The notes below the pieces were generated by a model. That model saw only the letters and a program-made list of their open reading frames with translations. It was not told where the DNA came from and made no database searches. From an uncultured archaeon (GTDB taxonomy: Archaea > Asgardarchaeota > Lokiarchaeia > Sigyniarchaeales > SOKP01), in NCBI GenBank assembly GCA_964583985.1, contig CAZOYD010000041.1, positions 1 to 14,352 on the forward strand: DNA of 14,352 nucleotides, written 5' to 3'. The stretch's first letter is position 1. The number at the start of each line of letters is the position of its first letter. Of the stretch, positions 4,157 to 14,352 are shown piece after piece. The position numbers and the translations under genes were made by a program.

Positions 4157-4678
4157 ATGAAAACTAATTTTTCTCAAGGAAAAAGTTGGATCGTATCTGC
4201 TATTAGCGATCTGAAAATTGTCGTCAGTAGCATTCAGAATGAATTTTATTCTCTCGTCGCGTTTAGAAGTCAACTTGCTGTAGAAAAATTCAATAAAGCT
4301 ATTTTAAATTTTATGGGATTGAAAGTAGAGAAAACCTATTCTCCAACAGTTATATTGGAAGATTTTCTGAAAAACAAATCTTCTTTAACAATAGCATTAG
4401 ATATAAAAGAAGTAATTAATGATATTATAAAATATTCTAAATTTTTTGAGAATGAAGGGGTTCAAACTCGATACGGAACCTTTAAGAATGATAAATTAAT
4501 CACCGCTGAAGAAATTTATAAATCTTTCGAAGACGTCAAAGATTTTCTGATAAATCTAGAAAGGATATTAAATCTTTATTTAGAACTTTTAAAGAAGAGC
4601 TTAAACCTGACTACTGAAGGATTTAAAGATTTAGGTCAATTAGAATTATTACTCGGAGAATTAAAAAAATGGACTTAA
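4157..4678 (+). CDS. HEPN domain protein (putative toxin of a HEPN-MNT pair), possibly catalytically degenerate
   Basis: HEPN pattern: W..SA..DL, AFRSQLAVEKFNKAIL (cf. FxAQQAxEKxxKA), KTYS (cf. KTHD/N), TRYG (cf. xRYP). It overlaps the downstream nucleotidyltransferase gene by 10 bp. Confidence 0.75.
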   Translation: MKTNFSQGKSWIVSAISDLKIVVSSIQNEFYSLVAFRSQLAVEKFNKAILNFMGLKVEKTYSPTVILEDFLKNKSSLTIALDIKEVINDIIKYSKFFENEGVQTRYGTFKNDKLITAEEIYKSFEDVKDFLINLERILNLYLELLKKSLNLTTEGFKDLGQLELLLGELKKWT

Positions 4679-5157
4679 ATTTAAAGTTTTTAAAGAATGA
4701 ATATTTTTCGATAAAATTGGAGGACTACTTAACTCAAATATTTCAAACAGATAAAAAAATTGCGGGAATTGTTTTATTTGGCTCATTAGCAAGAGGAGAT
4801 GCAATTTATTCAGAAGAAAAGAGAAGTGATATTGATTTAATTATTATTTTTAAAGATAATGAGCTTCCAGAAGATCCTAGAAAAAAGAATGAATTGAAAT
4901 TAAAATTAATGCAACTCACATCCGCAGGAATAGATTCGCTCTGGATGACCGAAAGTGAATTTAAACGTCTTGTTCAAATCAAAACCGATATAATCCTATA
5001 TGCTCTCGATGAATGTAAAATTTTGTATGACCCGACGGGATTGATAAAAGAAGAAAAGGAGCATTTATTCAAAGAGTTAAAAGAAAAGGGCGTTAAAAAG
5101 AAAAAACACTATTGGATTTGGCCGATAAAGAACTTTGGGGAAGAAATCGAATGGTAA
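4669..5157 (+). CDS. Minimal nucleotidyltransferase (MNT, Pol-beta superfamily), putative antitoxin
   Basis: IVLFGSLARGD...SDIDLIII motif, a third Asp in GIDSL, and C-terminal ILYDPTG. GGAG lies upstream of the start, and the gene is translationally coupled to the HEPN gene. Confidence 0.88.
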   Translation: MDLNLKFLKNEYFSIKLEDYLTQIFQTDKKIAGIVLFGSLARGDAIYSEEKRSDIDLIIIFKDNELPEDPRKKNELKLKLMQLTSAGIDSLWMTESEFKRLVQIKTDIILYALDECKILYDPTGLIKEEKEHLFKELKEKGVKKKKHYWIWPIKNFGEEIEW

Positions 5158-5186: not shown

Positions 5187-6068
5187 ATGGTAGAAAAGAA
5201 GAAAATTGTTTTTATTGGGCCTTCTGGTGTGGGAAAGACGACAATAAAGAATGTTTTTTTTGAAATGGCTAATCCCTTTTATCTTTTACAAAATTCTCTT
5301 CCTCCTACAAGAGGCTTTAATACGGTCTCATACCAGTTTCAAGATGATGAAGTCGGTTTATTTGACTTAGCAGGACAAGAGAATGAAAATTGGTTTAATC
5401 AAGATCGAGAAATCTTTGCATATACTGATCTGATAATCTGTGTTTTCGATGTGAATAGTTATTTAAATGATCTCTTCGATTTTATAAAAAAGTTAATGAT
5501 TTTAATCAAGGAAATTGGGTTAGGTACTCTTTCTTTAGCGATCTTGTTACACAAGATAGATTTGACAGAGACGTTATATCTCCAACACAAGGTAAAAGCG
5601 ATTGAAGAATTTGTTGAAAAGGAAGTAACTGGAATTAAGAAAATTTCAATCCATACCACATCAATCTCAAAAGAATACTTCTTAGACACGTATGACAAAA
5701 TGGCAGAAATATTTCTTGATGTATTTCAAGACAAGTTAAATTACAAACAAAAATCCTTTATTCAAGATTTTCGAACGGATATGAGAATCATCCTCAAATA
5801 TGATGATTTAAAAAAACATTCACAAACTGAACTTTTTCATGATTTTAATTTACCATCAAAAGAATCAAGTTTACACCTCTCTAGATTAGAAAAATTAGGA
5901 TTTCTTGAATTCTTAGGGACTAATCAATTTTTTAAGATGACAGAACGCGCGATTTTCATTAAATCAACTATTGATACCTTGAAATTAGATGAAAGAGAAA
6001 GTAAAATTAATAAGGTTCTTGAATTTCTTTATTTATTTTCTAATTTCAAGCTAAAAAGTAATGATTAA
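5187..6068 (+). CDS. Rag/Gtr-like small GTPase with C-terminal winged helix-turn-helix-like domain
   Basis: G1 GPSGVGKTT, G2 PPTRG, G3 DLAGQ, G4 HKID and G5 TTSI; His in G4 and TSI are Rag hallmarks. The C-terminal segment SQTELFHDFNLPSKESSLHLSRLEKLGFLEF...FFKMTERA resembles an ArsR/MarR-type wHTH. Confidence 0.85.
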   Translation: MVEKKKIVFIGPSGVGKTTIKNVFFEMANPFYLLQNSLPPTRGFNTVSYQFQDDEVGLFDLAGQENENWFNQDREIFAYTDLIICVFDVNSYLNDLFDFIKKLMILIKEIGLGTLSLAILLHKIDLTETLYLQHKVKAIEEFVEKEVTGIKKISIHTTSISKEYFLDTYDKMAEIFLDVFQDKLNYKQKSFIQDFRTDMRIILKYDDLKKHSQTELFHDFNLPSKESSLHLSRLEKLGFLEFLGTNQFFKMTERAIFIKSTIDTLKLDERESKINKVLEFLYLFSNFKLKSND

Positions 6069-8576: not shown

Positions 8577-9131
8577 TTATCTTAATCCTGCTTTTGGGGA
8601 TTCTATATTATTTAAAGAAATTTTAGCAAGTAATTCTATAATCATTAATTCGAATACATGGTCTATGTTTAATCCTGTTTTAGAAGATGTTTTTATATTA
8701 GCTATTAATTTATTCTTAAGCATCAAATCAATTGCAACATCGTCATTAATAGTTTCAGGTTCTACCAAGTCATATTTCGTACCAACTAATATAATTGGCA
8801 GATTATTATCTTGAGATCTTACTAAATTTATCCATTCTTCAGCGCTATTAATAGATTTGGGTTCAGTTAAATCAAATAATAAAAGAGCTCCAGAAGCACC
8901 TGTTACATATTTACTGTGTAAAAATCTAAATTGTTTTTGTCCACCAAAATCCCAAAGTTGAAACGATACTTCATAAGTCTCATAAATTAATCGCTTCAAA
9001 TAAAAATCAACTCCAATAGTAATTTTTGGAACATTATAAAATAATCCCTCAACGTATCTTCTCAGAAGAGTAGTTTTTCCTACAAATCCATCTCCTACAG
9101 TAATTATTTTGAATAACACCTGTTTTAACAT
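8577..9131 (-). CDS. Rab-like small GTPase (Ras superfamily)
   Basis: FKIITVGDGFVGKTT, effector TIGVDF, LWDFGGQKQFR, GASGALLLFDLT, G4 GTKYD and G5 KTSSK. A Shine-Dalgarno-like AGGAG lies at 9147-9143. There is no C-terminal cysteine prenylation motif. Confidence 0.9.
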   Translation of the reverse strand: MLKQVLFKIITVGDGFVGKTTLLRRYVEGLFYNVPKITIGVDFYLKRLIYETYEVSFQLWDFGGQKQFRFLHSKYVTGASGALLLFDLTEPKSINSAEEWINLVRSQDNNLPIILVGTKYDLVEPETINDDVAIDLMLKNKLIANIKTSSKTGLNIDHVFELMIIELLAKISLNNIESPKAGLR

Positions 9132-9268
9132 AGATATCTTAACTCCTTGATAGACATAACTTACATGTAATATTTTTTAAGTTTCATAATTTTATTAACT
9201 ATTATTATCGTTTTAAGGACTATTTTGCTAATTTCACATTTTAATTCAATAAATTTAACAACGAACAA

Positions 9269-10300
9269 TTATATGGTGCTCAATTTTATAGATTTTTCAA
9301 AAAATTCTTTACTTAATGTATCATCTCCAATTTCTAAACAAATATCTGCAATTCTTTCAAATTTTTGAGCTGCTGAATGAAAATCACCATTTTCTAACGC
9401 AATTTGAGCTTCCTTCACTAAACCATCCCTTTCAATAATTGGTTTCAGTAATGGAGAAACTTCAGGGCTCATATCTAAAATATCAGCAATAATTTTAATC
9501 ATCTTTTCGCGATTATTAGGCTCAATCGCAATCATTGAATATGTTTTAACTCCCATTATTCTTTCTATTTCATCAACAGGTACAGAATCGGGTAAATCTT
9601 GTTTATTGCCTATTATCGCTGAATATGCATGAGGAGCTTCCTCACTAATTAATTCTAGGAAGAACTTGCTTTTTTCTAAATTCTCTAAAGTCGAATTGGA
9701 AATCAATAAAACCGCATCACTTCCTTGAATAAATTTGTTCCAAAGAAAACTAAACTGTTCTTGACCTGCAAAATCCCATAATAGGAAAATTAATTTGCCA
9801 ATTTTAACTGTTGCTACTTCACCCGTTATAGTTGGAACGTGCTGTAATGGAATTTCTCTTGCTAATATAAGTTGTGTAATTGTTGTTTTTCCAACTCCTG
9901 AAAATCCTACAAGCGATATTTTTGGTTTTAAATTCCTATGAATTCCATCCATTAATGGATCTAGCAATGTTAGAATCGTATTGTCCAATCCGGAACCAAT
10001 TGATTCTTGAAACAAGTTTAAAAATTCTTTCGCTAATTTCAACAGCTCGGTTCTAATACGAGTAAAATCATCACTCAACCCTGTTACTAAAATGAAAAGC
10101 AATTTTTTTTCGTTATTTGCCAAAAAATTTAATTTAAATTTAAAATAATCCCACGATCCTTGTTCTTCCCCAAGTCGAGAAAATACTGTTTCAATGAGAT
10201 TAGGAAGAATGCTATTTAAATCTTCAATACTTAAAGCTTTACCATATGATCGTTCATAAATAATCTTTCCATCATGAATAATATAAATCTGGCGTAACAT
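9269..10300 (-). CDS. Longin-like domain fused to Arf/Ras-like small GTPase with C-terminal helical hairpin (TPR-like)
   Basis: Start re-called to the ATG at 10300, which has GGAGG upstream and sits 1 bp after the upstream TAA. N-terminal MLRQIYIIHDGKIIYERSY...LLFILVT...LAKEF fits longin topology. The G domain has GFSGVGKTT, PTITG, WDFAGQ and GNKQD. The tail EAQIALENGDFHSAAQKFERIADI is TPR-like. Confidence 0.85.
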   Translation of the reverse strand: MLRQIYIIHDGKIIYERSYGKALSIEDLNSILPNLIETVFSRLGEEQGSWDYFKFKLNFLANNEKKLLFILVTGLSDDFTRIRTELLKLAKEFLNLFQESIGSGLDNTILTLLDPLMDGIHRNLKPKISLVGFSGVGKTTITQLILAREIPLQHVPTITGEVATVKIGKLIFLLWDFAGQEQFSFLWNKFIQGSDAVLLISNSTLENLEKSKFFLELISEEAPHAYSAIIGNKQDLPDSVPVDEIERIMGVKTYSMIAIEPNNREKMIKIIADILDMSPEVSPLLKPIIERDGLVKEAQIALENGDFHSAAQKFERIADICLEIGDDTLSKEFFEKSIKLSTI

Positions 10301-10301
10301 T

Positions 10302-11234
10302 TTATTGATTTCCCTCCGTATCAATAATTTGACTTATATTTTTTAAAAATTCTGACATTACCTCGTTAATTTCCTCCTTTTGAAGATTCTCCGAAAAGAT
10401 ATAAAGCGAACCAAAATCAGGATTATAATCATTTAAATATTCCATTTTCATGCTTAAGATCATTGGACCAGCATCAATAAAACGAAAATCTGTATCTGAT
10501 TTTTTCCCTTTACAGATTCGATTGTAGTGTGCAATCAACACATATATTTGGTAAATAATATCATGATTAAAGTCGGATGACATTGATTGAACAAATATTT
10601 GACCTTGTTTATTTGTGATTAAACAGATCATTTTTGAACTTTCACCAATAATTATATCAATATTGGATTTTAGTTTTTGAGATTCTAAAGAATAGCTACT
10701 TAAGATTTCAGAGAGAGCGTTATAAGATCGATATAATAAATTTGGATAAATACTAGTGAAAAAAATGGATATTTCCTTTGGTAGATCCAACCGATTTTTG
10801 ATTCTCCTTTCTATTCTATTAAAATTAGCGCAGATTTTTTGATTTATTAAATCTATTTTATGAAAGAATATAAAAAAAGTTCCATTTGCATTGAAGTCCT
10901 CGTAAATTCGGATTATTTCTCTGATTTCTTCAATAATTACTTCAGAATTTAAAACCCACCCTTTATAATCTATTATGTATATGATAGCATCAGCATTTCC
11001 AAAAATCTTTTCTTGTTCTTGAGAATCTATTAATAAATTTGATAATTCCTGTCCCGAAGTGTCAAATAATCCTATTTCTAAATCCATCCAAATACATGCT
11101 TTAGGATTTATTCCCCGCGTCGGTTCTAGTGGATGTATCATAAGTTCTTGTGGACTTATTCCTTCAAAAATGAGATTAATTATACTGGATTTTCCAACTC
11201 CTGCTTTTCCTAATAAGGAAATTTTATTTGCCAC
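10302..11234 (-). CDS. Rag/Gtr-like GTPase with probable C-terminal roadblock-like domain
   Basis: KISLLGKAGVGKSS, EPTRG, LFDTSGQ, IFGNADAIIYIID, FFHKIDL and FFTSIY parallel RagA/Gtr1 (IFRNVEVLIYVFD, HKMDL, TSIW). The C-terminal helix followed by ICLITNKQGQIFVQS fits a roadblock fold. The start is GTG. Confidence 0.85.
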   Translation of the reverse strand: MANKISLLGKAGVGKSSIINLIFEGISPQELMIHPLEPTRGINPKACIWMDLEIGLFDTSGQELSNLLIDSQEQEKIFGNADAIIYIIDYKGWVLNSEVIIEEIREIIRIYEDFNANGTFFIFFHKIDLINQKICANFNRIERRIKNRLDLPKEISIFFTSIYPNLLYRSYNALSEILSSYSLESQKLKSNIDIIIGESSKMICLITNKQGQIFVQSMSSDFNHDIIYQIYVLIAHYNRICKGKKSDTDFRFIDAGPMILSMKMEYLNDYNPDFGSLYIFSENLQKEEINEVMSEFLKNISQIIDTEGNQ

Positions 11235-11345
11235 GATAAGATAACCTATTTTTCAGATTTTTAAACTTTTCATGTATTAGGTTTACATATCAAAATTGTA
11301 CTAAAAGTTTAAACAAATTATCTAAAAAATATAAGAAAGTGTGAA

Positions 11346-11359
11346 TATAAATATTTATA
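11346..11359. promoter_or_regulatory. Palindromic TATA-like element upstream of the Rag-like gene
   Basis: Perfect 14-bp palindrome TATAAATATTTATA about 110 bp upstream of the 11234 start. The AT-rich background weakens its significance. Confidence 0.25.
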
Positions 11360-11500
11360 CATAACATCATTAAATAATTACGTAAAATTTCTATTTTGGA
11401 TAAAAATCCAACATTAAATTATTGGTTTATGTATCCATTAATATACAAGAATCTGAAGTCAAAGAATTTTGAGATAATGACTCTCAAATCTGAAGAATAT

Positions 11501-12304
11501 TTATATTATGAAATAATGATCGATAACTTCTTCAAAACTGTAATATCTTGAAATGTCGCCATTTAATTTTTCAACATATTTATTGTAGCGTCTTTGAAAT
11601 TCTAAAGTAATTAATTGCATGTATCTCTTATTGATAATCGATTTTTTATCTTCATCTACTAAATAAGCAAAGATCAAATTATTGATTGAATTAATGTAAA
11701 AATGTCTATTACCAAAATCTATTTCCCTTAACTGTGTATCAGGACCCTTGCCAATTAATTCTCTCGCAAAAGTTAATATTGCTGAAATGAAACCACTAAT
11801 TTGAATTTCATATTGAGCGAAACTAGATTTTTCCTTATTGATTTTAGTAAAAAATGTGTGTCCCGAAGATGCGATTATCAATATTGCTAAAACTCCCTCA
11901 GATTTAGGGACTACTACCAGCTTATTCGCACATTCCTTAATTTCCGATGGATCTTTTAATTTACTAATGCAATTAAATAATTCTTGAGATATTTTTTGCA
12001 ATTTTGAGTAAGCTATTATTTTTTCAGGTTTATCTAAATAAACAAACACGAAAAAATTATTTGATTTTTTAAAAAAGTGAATATAAACAGAAAAATCGCA
12101 GACTAAATCAATTAAAACTCCTGTTTTTTTATTGATTATTTTCTCTTTATGCATGTCAACTATTTTTTCTAATAAAGAATATCCGATGCCAATCTCATGA
12201 TGAATTTTCGTCTTGAAACTGGATTTTTCTTTATAGATTTGTATGATTCCCATTCCAGTAAGAATTAATGGTGATACCATATCTAAACAATTTTCACTTG
12301 ACAT
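11501..12304 (-). CDS. Longin-like domain protein (clear C-terminal domain, probable degenerate N-terminal copy)
   Basis: C-half VLAILIIASSGHTFF...QISGFISAILTFARELIG...LREIDFG...LIFAYLVD...LITLEFQRRY matches the longin/roadblock-type 'SGFxSAI' pattern typical of Asgard proteins. The N-half has a similar strand/helix order (YIHFFKKSNNFFVFVYLD followed by a helix). Confidence 0.7.
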   Translation of the reverse strand: MSSENCLDMVSPLILTGMGIIQIYKEKSSFKTKIHHEIGIGYSLLEKIVDMHKEKIINKKTGVLIDLVCDFSVYIHFFKKSNNFFVFVYLDKPEKIIAYSKLQKISQELFNCISKLKDPSEIKECANKLVVVPKSEGVLAILIIASSGHTFFTKINKEKSSFAQYEIQISGFISAILTFARELIGKGPDTQLREIDFGNRHFYINSINNLIFAYLVDEDKKSIINKRYMQLITLEFQRRYNKYVEKLNGDISRYYSFEEVIDHYFII

Positions 12305-12414
12305 GTGATTTATACACTTAAAAATAGGATATAGTGTAAATTTTTATTCTTTTTAATAGATAATTACATAAATAGTATTTAAATTTAAGTAAAACATAAA
12401 AACTAACTTTAGGT

Positions 12415-14352
12415 TCAGATTTTTTTTGGAATTGCAAAATAGAAAGTACTACCTTTACCAATTTCGCTTTCAAACCAGATCTTCCCCCTATGCAGATTAA
12501 TAATCCGACGTGTTAACGTTAATCCCAATCCAACACCAGGTATTTCATTTTTCGAATAATTCCCTACTCTTACAAATTCTTTAAACACGTGTTCAAAATC
12601 TTTTTCCAAAATCCCCATCCCTGTATCTTCTATTTGAAATTCCCAATTGTCCTTATTTTCAAGGAATCTAAGACAAATCATTCCTTTTTTTGTAAATTTT
12701 ATGGCATTTTCAAGCAAATTTATGAGGACCTGCTTTATTCTTAAGGAATCAGCATATATCATGGTATTTTTCATAATTCCTTCAACTTCAAAGCTAAGAT
12801 TTTTATTTAAATACAAGTGTTTAATGATATTATGAATTTCGTTGAATAAATCATATAAATTGAAATAACTGTAATTTAATTCAAATTTTCCAACTTCAAT
12901 TTGAGAAAAATCCAGAATCGCATCAATTAATTTCTTTAAATCATTTCCAGTTACTAATATATCTTCAAGAAATTCCTTTTGGGTGTCATTTAATTTCCCA
13001 TATGATTCCTCAATCAATAAAGACGTAAATCCTAAAATAGCATTTAGAGGAGTTCTGAGTTCATGAGACATTGTAGCCATGAAGTTTGCTTTAAAGTTTA
13101 TCGTTTGGATAAGATTATCTAGTAAGATCTCCAATTGCTTTTTATCTGCTTTCTTATCCGTTAAATCTAAGATATAAGATTGTATAATTTTAACTTGGTT
13201 TAGTTCTAACCCTAAAGAGGTCAACTCTATATCAAAATGATTTTCCTCCCGATTTAAAAATGATACTTCGATCACTGAAGTTGCATCATCATCATAGGAT
13301 ACTTTTATATAATGTTCTTCTATTAGTTTTTGAGCATTAGGATCAAATAGAGTATAAACTTTCGTTTTCATTAAATCATTTTGATTGATTTTCAATATAT
13401 CAATAGCTTTTTGATTTGCTTTTAAAATTTCTCCGGTTCGCTTGAGTATAATAATCCCTAAAGGAGCCCCTTCGATTAATGCTTCTAGACTACTCAAAGT
13501 ACGTTCCAAATTTTCCATTTCTAACTTGGATTTTTTAATTTCAGTGATATCTTGAAGTAAGATATATATCCAAGTCTTATTTTGCATATTAATCAAGGAA
13601 AAATACATTCTTACCCAAATTTCTAACCCATCCTTTATGGGTAAAGAAAATTCGAGTGATACCATATTAAATCCATTTAAAGTGTCATTTATACATTCAG
13701 CGACATGTTCCTGATTTGCTTTTTTAAATAAAGGGACTTTTGAATAATGTAGATTAATAAATTCATTCTTATGATAAGCTCCTAACTTCATTAATTTGGA
13801 GTTATAATCTAAAACGTTTCCGTTTTTATCTAAAATGATAATAGGATAGGGAGAATTTTCAAATAAATCCCTGTATTTTTGTTCAGAGTAACATAAATTA
13901 TTCTCATAATTTCTGCGTTCGGTAATATCTCGAAATATTAAGAGGAAAGCATTATCGCCTTCCCATTCGATTGTAGTAGTATTTTCCTCCACTATTGAAG
14001 GTTCATTGCCTTCTCGCATTATTCTGATTTCCTTTTTTCCAATTTCTAAAAGGTTTTCATCAATATGTCCAATACATTGATTTGTTTTCCATCCCAAATA
14101 CATTTCAGATCGAAGATTTAGAAACAAGATTTTTCCATTTTGGTTCACAATTGTGATACAGTCTAAAAATTTATCAATTACCTCTTTTAATCGATTTTCT
14201 TTATTCTGATATGTTTTTGCTGAAGTTTCAATTATTTTCTTTATATTATGTCTGTCTATAGCATATATTATAGATCTAATTAACGGATGGGCGTCAATTT
14301 GCCCTTTCACTATATAATCTTGAGCTCCAATATGAACTGCTTTACGTGCTAA
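12415..14352 (-). CDS. Cytoplasmic sensor histidine kinase REC-PAS-PAS-PAS-HisKA-HATPase_c; N-terminus truncated by the window edge
   Basis: The frame stays open to 14352 and reads LARKAVHIGAQDYIVKGQ...LIRSIIYAIDR, the end of a receiver domain, so GTG 14310 is not the start. Three PAS domains end RDIT, QDIT and LDLT. H-box SHELRTPL, N-box NLLENAIKFT, G1 DTGMGI, G2 GVGLGL. No TM segment is visible. Confidence 0.92.
   Translation of the reverse strand, partial: LARKAVHIGAQDYIVKGQIDAHPLIRSIIYAIDRHNIKKIIETSAKTYQNKENRLKEVIDKFLDCITIVNQNGKILFLNLRSEMYLGWKTNQCIGHIDENLLEIGKKEIRIMREGNEPSIVEENTTTIEWEGDNAFLLIFRDITERRNYENNLCYSEQKYRDLFENSPYPIIILDKNGNVLDYNSKLMKLGAYHKNEFINLHYSKVPLFKKANQEHVAECINDTLNGFNMVSLEFSLPIKDGLEIWVRMYFSLINMQNKTWIYILLQDITEIKKSKLEMENLERTLSSLEALIEGAPLGIIILKRTGEILKANQKAIDILKINQNDLMKTKVYTLFDPNAQKLIEEHYIKVSYDDDATSVIEVSFLNREENHFDIELTSLGLELNQVKIIQSYILDLTDKKADKKQLEILLDNLIQTINFKANFMATMSHELRTPLNAILGFTSLLIEESYGKLNDTQKEFLEDILVTGNDLKKLIDAILDFSQIEVGKFELNYSYFNLYDLFNEIHNIIKHLYLNKNLSFEVEGIMKNTMIYADSLRIKQVLINLLENAIKFTKKGMICLRFLENKDNWEFQIEDTGMGILEKDFEHVFKEFVRVGNYSKNEIPGVGLGLTLTRRIINLHRGKIWFESEIGKGSTFYFAIPKKI

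Follow-up and report, generated by a model that had tools for sequence, protein, structure and literature searches.

A tandem double-longin family and a conserved Rag-like/longin-Arf GTPase pair beside two-component sensor genes in Lokiarchaeia

Asgard archaeal genomes hold dozens of GTPases as well as longin and roadblock proteins. The available text of a preprint by Liu et al. (10.1101/2020.10.19.343400) describes Rag-, Arf- and Rab-like GTPases, longin-GTPase fusions and NPRL2-like longins fused to two-component domains in these archaea, and proposes an Asgard growth control centred on two-component systems with eukaryote-like regulators, such that the general idea of two-component systems working with eukaryote-like GTPase regulators is, on that text, already in print. 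The accessible parts of Tran et al. 2024 (PMC10933270) likewise record longin- and roadblock-GTPase fusions, and state that the GTPase genes of MK-D1 are generally not in operons with such regulators and that gene order seldom reveals which regulator serves which GTPase in Asgard archaea. The subject of the present analysis is a cluster of five genes in the first 14,352 bases (the window, the whole stretch of DNA that was analysed) of the 32,980-base contig CAZOYD010000041.1, which belongs to an uncultured lokiarchaeial genome of 3.8 Mb; relatives of the window proteins carry Promethearchaeota or Lokiarchaeia labels in public records. The cluster encodes a sensor kinase, a double-longin protein, a Rag-like GTPase, a longin-Arf fusion and a Rab-like GTPase. 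So far as the available text of Liu et al. and Tran et al. goes, these are the same kinds of protein (Rag-like with a predicted roadblock tail, longin-GTPase fusions, Rab-like), whereas the link here is gene order rather than the fusion reported by Liu et al., the longin is a tandem double longin, and operons of this sort are not the rule in MK-D1 according to Tran et al. Two things are new: the double-longin family with its chemotaxis and two-component linkage, and the conserved Rag-like/longin-Arf gene pair. A literature search, with supplements (asCOG numbers) outside its range, returned no description of the family, of its che-operon linkage or of the pair. It likewise gave no description of Asgard multi-longin proteins relating to Mon1-Ccz1, and nothing that joins longin domains with Asgard chemotaxis, the two topics being handled apart.

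Two bacterial systems invite comparison. In the accessible accounts of the actinobacterial conservons, CvnA-D (PMC13343842, PMC13621833), the genes for a sensor histidine kinase, a member of the roadblock superfamily and a small GTPase of the Ras superfamily likewise share one cluster, in which the kinase is proposed to control a GTPase switch. However, the conservon roadblock is MglB-type and its GTPase MglA-like as described there, in contrast to the Rag-, Arf- and Rab-type GTPases and double longin of the present locus, and the conservon includes DUF742 (CvnC), for which no window protein has a Pfam match. In Myxococcus xanthus, as set out in the available text of PMC13408092 and PMC10329633, the Che-type Frz pathway steers the small GTPase MglA together with MglB, a regulator of roadblock/longin fold. 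The likeness lies in the commonest context of the double-longin family, which is a cheW-cheY-cheA operon; the differences are that no MglA or MglB orthologues occur here and that the genome that carries the window has no CheW or CheA match. By analogy, the logic of the locus would resemble the Frz-to-MglA/MglB switch and the actinobacterial conservon more closely than it would Rag-mTORC1.

The five genes are consecutive and co-oriented on the minus strand, with spacers of 110, 266, 1 and 137 base pairs (bp) in the order from the kinase to the Rab-like gene. An earlier note on this DNA, made from the sequence alone, had described five such genes with these gaps; all five open reading frames were found on the minus strand where it had placed them, and the gaps were re-measured with the same values. 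The profile searches that it had proposed returned Gtr1_RagA for the third gene, Arf for the fourth and Ras for the fifth. Its REC-PAS3 histidine kinase was recovered by Pfam with the receiver mostly past the window's end, its longin-fused GTPase is supported by fold matches to VAMP7 and Arf1, and its Rab-like GTPase has Rabs as nearest solved relatives in addition to a Ras match. All of its domain calls hold, two of them with a correction. The protein that it called longin-like does have a longin fold by structure prediction and comparison, although in two tandem domains instead of a single one, and the third gene is of Rag type as claimed, with its roadblock-like tail read from a sequence alignment and not from a fold.

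The double-longin gene (11501..12304, minus strand) encodes a protein of 267 residues that no Pfam or NCBIfam model matches, with no Pfam match even at E<=1. The AlphaFold2 (AF2) model, calculated with an alignment of 29 of its 32 relatives (three short fragments were omitted), has a predicted local distance difference test (pLDDT) score of 83.3 and displays two tandem beta-beta-alpha-beta-beta-beta-alpha-alpha units, of which domain 1 spans about residues 12-129 and domain 2 about residues 138-244 plus a C-terminal helix. Foldseek ranks Fuzzy-Inturned first (2.6e-6), followed by CPLANE, Mon1-Ccz1 and BLOC-3, with E-values of 2.6e-6 to 1e-3, and places single longins and roadblocks below these multi-longin Rab exchange factors. 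Comparison with VIA aligns domain 2 to the longin of VAMP7 (Z 12.2) and to Sec22 and sedlin (11.6), and domain 1 to a solved Lokiarchaeota longin (8yqg, Z 11.2), to the longins of an NPRL subunit and FNIP2 (Z 10.0) and, at Z 8.7-9.8, to the C-terminal domain of each of two Rag-like proteins of Lokiarchaeota whose structures are solved, structures for which the literature search gave no paper. The protein is thus modelled as a tandem double longin rather than a single longin. Two other readings of the fold were tried and rejected. Roadblock domains of MglB, LAMTOR and MK-D1 score Z 8-10, below the longins (MglB Z 9.5-9.9). For a PAS/Cache fold, dCache reaches about 1e-3 in Foldseek and is absent from the 50 best VIA rows, in which the sole entry from the PAS/Cache side is one phytochrome with a root-mean-square deviation (rmsd) of 15; longin is favoured over PAS/Cache because PAS and Cache do not compete in the VIA rows.

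In Foldseek the double longin comes closest to the tri-longin Rab exchange factors (Mon1-Ccz1, Fuzzy-Inturned, HPS1-HPS4), and, like the longins of exchange factors, it has no arginine finger: no invariant or near-invariant arginine and no conserved GP pair is present among 29 aligned family members. Longins that serve as GTPase-activating proteins (GAPs) for Rag or Arf, of the FLCN, NPRL2 and SMCR8 type, are described in the accessible text of PMC12290439 as having a GP motif together with a catalytic arginine finger in the first longin hairpin. The double longin differs from the tri-longin factors in having two longin domains instead of three and one chain instead of a heterodimer, and an exchange activity would be putative; the template-modelling (TM) scores against them are low, 0.2-0.3, because only single domains superpose. 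A word-indexed search returned 32 relatives, each of them either unnamed or derived from an Asgard metagenome-assembled genome, and the family is Asgard-only. A profile search of 1.84 billion representatives yielded 28 matches at E<=1e-30 and 490 at E<=1e-3, and those outside the family proper align to domain 2 only. The follow-up Pfam scan covered 70 of 150 listed profile matches (66 distant and 4 mid-range) and detected Fuz_longin_1 in 13, six of these above the cut-off, along with five longin-GTPase fusions and three proteins with a roadblock domain elsewhere. Within the family itself, 10 of 29 members have a sub-threshold Fuz_longin_1 match (best 9.2e-4); the window protein has none at E<=1.

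Where does this family reside? One genome per species was scanned, which gave 79 double-longin loci, and neighbours in these and other foreign loci were assigned from our own open reading frame calls by BLAST against the window proteins and Pfam-checked neighbours. A two-component or Che gene lies within 3 kb of the double longin in 60 of the 79 loci; for comparison, 5.4% of the bases of the window's own genome are as close to a comparable match. The double-longin family is linked to two-component and chemotaxis genes, rather than to GTPases. A quickly built maximum-likelihood tree was used to arrange the loci; its 77 rows comprise the window, two loci that were fetched and the 74 loci whose alignments reach 180 residues or more. 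The window branch is long in this tree, and kin loci are not independent. The first group is a 44-row clade with support of 98, and in 37 of its rows the double longin is followed by cheW, cheY and cheA. Spacers in this clade range from 19 to 35 bp and are 19, 35 and 29 bp in locus L014. In these loci an unstudied protein family heads chemotaxis operons of Lokiarchaeia. A divergent gene of 157 residues is common upstream in this group, and a gene of 84-96 residues is present in 13 loci. The second group comprises 27 rows, namely tree groups of 22 and 4 plus one row inside the che clade; here the double longin precedes a 117-residue gene and a winged-helix/zinc-ribbon gene, and is often itself preceded by an RHH-HisKA-REC gene, an architecture recorded in Lokiarchaeum in the accessible text of Galperin et al. 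(PMC5847659). The third group is a 7-row clade that includes the window (support of 94 by the Shimodaira-Hasegawa-like approximate likelihood ratio test, SH-aLRT). The window's own genome encodes one more family member, which falls in the second group.

The product of the 84-residue gene found by the double-longin/che operons of 13 loci is, as a separate protein, homologous to the tail (residues 266-338) of the window's longin-Arf fusion. Searched against the window's own genome, it has that tail as sole match (E 7e-8), and it matches the same tail region in all 30 longin-Arf relatives tested. The 157-, 84- and 117-residue neighbours of double-longin paralogues have no Pfam match at E<=1. Both of the longer ones are conserved small genes, as exemplified by L014 9124-9597 (minus strand, 157 residues) and L017 10927-11280 (plus strand, 117 residues). 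Two of the che-linked double-longin genes are filed under other archaeal names, L077 under Bathyarchaeota and L025 under Odinarchaeota, and are nested among Lokiarchaeial ones.

The Rag-like gene (10302..11234, minus strand) encodes a Rag/Gtr1-type GTPase of 310 residues, with a C-terminal domain of the length usual in Rags. The protein matches Pfam Gtr1_RagA (PF04670) over residues 4-224 with 92 bits, against a cut-off of 22, and has RagA, Gtr1, RagC/D and Gtr2 as best solved relatives. Across 32 family sequences there is no variation in the P-loop, the switch I Thr, DxxGQ or HKxD. The G4 motif, H125 K126 D128, aligns with the HKMD of RagA, and this replacement of NKxD by HKxD is one that we take to be a Rag-family signature. 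A profile of 32 relatives aligns unbroken with residues 7-289 of the 310 of yeast Gtr1, into its roadblock domain, and with residues 4-281 of Gtr2; an Atlas feature search of residues 178-310 returned Gtr1_RagA clusters at 0.84-0.87, under the 0.9 mark. Comparison with the Rag heterodimers (RagA/B-RagC/D, Gtr1-Gtr2) thus shows a protein that is collinear with Gtr1 over most of its length and is encoded beside a second GTPase; in contrast to those heterodimers, in which two Rags pair obligately by way of their roadblock domains, the adjacent partner is longin-Arf-like and not a second Rag. The comparison with Ragulator/EGO differs further in that the window holds no LAMTOR-type roadblock gene, and no TOR kinase would be expected according to the available text of Liu et al.

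The partner gene (9269..10300, minus strand) starts one base past the stop of the Rag-like gene, at the ATG at 10300, and encodes 343 residues laid out as longin, Arf-like GTPase and three-helix tail. Its match to Pfam Arf (PF00025) scores 63.6 bits against a cut-off of 22.3, and Arf1 and Arf5 are found at 1e-14 among solved relatives. An AF2 model calculated with 34 of 120 listed relatives (pLDDT 81.6) contains all three parts: in VIA comparisons residues 1-126 match the longin of VAMP7 (Z 14.8, rmsd 2.4 over 117 residues), Sec22 (13.9) and synbindin (13.5), and the stretch 125-277 superposes on Arf1 with Z 15.0 and an rmsd of 2.6 over 150 residues. A longin domain of 125 residues thus takes the place of the amphipathic, myristoylated helix at the N-terminus of Arf, and longin-type N-termini are recorded among Asgard Arf-like proteins in the accessible text of PMC11914678. 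In the most widespread copy of the longin-Arf gene (L087-L112, for example L097 1522-3597) the product has 620-715 residues, of which about 300 form an additional C-terminal half without a match to any query used.

Of 120 genomes sampled from the class, 113 carry the longin-Arf family at E<=1e-60, with between one and six copies each, and 44 carry the Rag-like family at E<=1e-55; those 44 belong to a single family-level group. A longin-Arf relative directly follows the Rag-like gene in 22 of 30 fetched Rag-like loci, and coordinates from the 120-genome scans indicate about two dozen further pairs. Five of the eight unpaired loci have instead a longer Rag-like paralogue and then a second Rag-like gene, as on contig C42 of the window's own genome. 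The Rag-like and longin-Arf genes are a conserved pair with intact GTPase motifs, and the two are probably co-translated.

The surroundings of the pair outside the window's own genome are themselves informative. In eight of 29 foreign Rag-like loci a histidine kinase, REC or HisKA-REC gene is no further than 1.5 kb away, and in 14 there is a convergent gene of 552-561 residues with PAS-GAF-PAS architecture (three of these assigned with Pfam, the others with BLAST), so that a kinase or receiver gene or a PAS-GAF-PAS sensor adjoins in 22 of 29. In genomes G114 and G096, co-oriented kinase/receiver clusters lead straight into the Rag-like/longin-Arf pair. On the comparative data as a whole, the kinase-GTPase linkage is recurrent and not a matter of chance. 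Most commonly, as in L125 and L132-L145, the pair lies between a CCG/4Fe-4S (HdrD-like) gene of 411-417 residues and the convergent PAS-GAF-PAS gene, a setting that hints at redox-linked sensing.

Inspection of the loci orthologous to the window shows which parts of the arrangement are kept. All seven orthologous rows have a REC-PAS-kinase cluster on one side of the double longin, and the downstream sides that can be read contain amidohydrolase-like and carboxylate-amine-ligase-like genes, both of which are also in the window. A divergent REC-HATPase gene separates the kinase from the double longin in six of the seven; its orthologue on the window contig sits 5 kb further on. The order double longin, Rag-like, longin-Arf is found in the window and in genomes G037 (L007/L084), G074 (L085/L115) and G045 (L086), the last being a short contig outside the seven rows, and the spacers between these three genes are about 40 bp in L085 and L086. 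The order of kinase cluster, double longin and GTPases therefore recurs in orthologous loci of two genera; its failure to do so is what the earlier note had named as refuting its proposal. The second such outcome, an adjacency no more frequent than the many kinases and GTPases would give, was not observed either: in the window's own genome HisKA sites number 20, and five of the 18 strong Rag-like genes are no more than 5 kb away from one, compared with 0.73 expected as the mean of 5,000 random placements. Two other clusters of that genome are of related content. On contig C42 (L113 2525-11273), a roadblock/LC7 gene, a 404-residue coiled-coil gene and a receiver gene face two Rag-like GTPase genes (439 and 504 residues), which are followed by GAF-PAS and PAS histidine kinases. 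On contig C87 (L114 3723-7871), genes for an ArsR-type regulator, a 199-residue Rag/Arf-like GTPase, a MASE3-PAS histidine kinase and a receiver are co-oriented with short spacers.

The kinase gene at the head of the cluster (12415..14352 and on to contig position 14793, minus strand) encodes a REC-PAS-PAS-PAS-HisKA-HATPase_c hybrid sensor kinase of 792 residues in the full contig, of which the window covers residues 148-792. Pfam matches are HisKA at 74 bits and HATPase_c at 86.6 bits, both above their cut-offs, and PAS_9 at 71.7 bits. The REC domain lies almost wholly outside the window's end, and its Response_reg match (67.5 bits, above the cut-off) is seen only in the full gene. The sequence contains SHELRTPL, NLLENAIKFT, DTGMGI and GVGLGL, which we take to be the H box, the N box and the G1 and G2 boxes, respectively, and the receiver Asp is visible within ILDLNLP. 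The protein is an intact two-component sensor histidine kinase with an N-terminal receiver. At the other end of the cluster, the Rab-like gene (8577..9131, minus strand) encodes a small GTPase of 184 residues that matches Pfam Ras (PF00071) with 125.9 bits and whose best solved relatives are Rab11, Ypt31/32, Rab1 and Rab23 (1e-29 to 1e-26), along with Rab43. No C-terminal prenylation cysteine is present in its last 30 residues, which end in SPKAGLR. Among the orthologous loci the gene is found only in the window, L007/L084 and L005, and it is absent from L085; it is an optional member of the cluster.

What could this set of genes do together? Taken with its relatives, the locus offers a matched partner set of one double longin, a Rag-type and longin-Arf pair, and defined kinases or receivers adjoining. 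We hypothesize that it is one end of a Lokiarchaeial signalling island in which PAS kinases and receivers are genetically coupled to a small-GTPase module, a reading that we hold as plausible, if just short of probable. Some functional coupling of the phosphorelay with the GTPase pair we consider somewhat probable, and a role of the double longin specifically as the link between the two is a tentative and rather doubtful proposition. In the mechanism proposed, the phosphorylation state of kinases and receivers would be passed to the double longin, which would form a platform for the Rag-like/longin-Arf pair, would be exchange-factor-like (of Mon1/Fuzzy type) and not an arginine-finger GAP, and would perhaps dock on the three-helix tail of the longin-Arf fusion. 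An accessory output would come from the Rab-like GTPase. Coupling of this kind, if true, would show a route of bacterial-style sensing into GTPase switches before eukaryotes. A bolder proposal, which is speculative and on balance unlikely, makes the double-longin family the missing adaptor: a phosphorylated receiver would switch a Mon1/Fuzzy-type platform that loads or holds the pair via the helical tail, and the multi-longin Rab exchange factors might have descended from this family. If true, the lineage closest to eukaryotes would use a prokaryotic sensory pathway to direct GTPase machinery of eukaryotic type.

Several observations weigh against coupling through this locus. A GTPase lies within 5 kb of the double longin in only 3 of the 79 loci, so in general the double longin does not need a GTPase next to it. 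Nor is the cluster a single fixed unit of five genes: in L004, L006 and L076, three of the seven orthologous loci, the double longin and kinases are present with no GTPase, L005 has kept the Rab-like gene as its only GTPase, and G074 is without a Rab-like gene. The kinase-linked pairs of G114 and G096 are without any double longin, and profile-profile comparison of the double-longin family with the longin-Arf family (0.35% probability) and with the Rag-like family (0.11%) amounts to no similarity. The five Rag-like/HisKA cases of the window's own genome fall on only three contigs, so independent events are few. The AT-rich spacers of 110, 266 and 137 bp could each have room for a promoter; none is callable by eye in these three, in DNA of 26% G+C. 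The 24 sequencing runs listed for this DNA, most of them salt-marsh metagenomes, are all of DNA, with no RNA run among them. The context counts would also fit a different account, possible if rather on the unlikely side, in which the double longin serves two-component and chemotaxis signalling only, as a scaffold, receiver-binding adaptor or output, and the GTPase genes are a separate cassette that landed by chance between the double longin and the amidohydrolase gene in some lineages, with no direct cross-talk. The abundance of two-component and Che genes beside a family that seldom neighbours a GTPase, and the closely spaced che operons that one of its clades heads, are as such an account would predict; in L006 and L076 the amidohydrolase gene directly follows the double longin, and in many genomes the GTPase pair has other neighbours. 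It accounts less readily for the use of the same insertion site in four genomes of two genera, with a spacing of about 40 bp in two of them, for the repeated adjoining of the pair itself to two-component or PAS-GAF genes, and for the free-standing recurrence of the longin-Arf tail domain beside double-longin/che operons.

The earlier note had also proposed a forerunner or analogue of Rag nutrient sensing that does without TOR; on this reading the longins would be Ragulator-, GATOR1- or FLCN-like scaffolds or GAPs for a Rag-Rab cascade reporting on nutrients. The Rag-type GTPase is indeed a full-length relative of Gtr1 and RagA, NPRL and FNIP2 longins are among the fold matches of the double longin's domain 1, and the available text of Liu et al. 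proposes a two-component-centred growth pathway with such regulators. However, the 29-sequence alignment of double longins has no invariant arginine, in contrast to the arginine finger and GP motif of GAP longins. The Rag-type GTPase is partnered by an Arf-like protein and no second Rag, and the sensors are cytoplasmic PAS/GAF domains. Moreover, neither the Pfam scan of the window nor the orthologous loci contain a conserved transporter, amino-acid sensor or growth-related gene, and the strongest link of the family is to chemotaxis genes; the data give nutrient sensing no specific backing, and we regard this proposal as highly improbable. Could the genes simply be neighbours without functional link, in a variable genomic region with many kinases and GTPases? 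The window's own genome does contain about 20 HisKA sites and 38 matches to the Rag profile, cluster content differs among close relatives, and in MK-D1, by the accessible account of Tran et al., GTPase genes generally lie outside operons with roadblock or longin genes. Chance neighbourhood is nonetheless very unlikely in our estimation, given the excess of Rag-like genes within 5 kb of HisKA sites over random placement, the joining of the same gene families in independent arrangements of other genomes, and the frequency of two-component and Che neighbours of the double-longin family relative to the genomic background.

Other features of the window and its relatives are of lesser bearing. A further Rag-like GTPase gene, a mere candidate for membership of the unit and not among the genes of the earlier note, lies on the plus strand at 5187..6068 and encodes 293 residues (Gtr1_RagA, 47 bits) with an HKID motif, LLHKIDL in the sequence, and a 120-residue tail; its longer relatives, which are paired with a second Rag-like gene, have a weak winged-helix match (L142). 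The L007 contig is filed under an actinobacterial name and is probably mis-binned, because each of its genes has a counterpart, in the same order, in the Lokiarchaeial loci. In this locus a 138-residue antisense open reading frame (L007 7694-8110, minus strand) lies between the double-longin and Rag-like genes and is similar to a portion of the double longin (34%, 54 bits), and it may, from this similarity, be a duplication remnant. Finally, on the plus strand at 4157-5157 the window holds a HEPN-domain gene (173 residues) and a Pol-beta-type nucleotidyltransferase gene (162 residues) that overlap by 10 bases. The two form the usual HEPN/MNT pair, and this pair is kept beside the ligase-like gene in L005 and L076.

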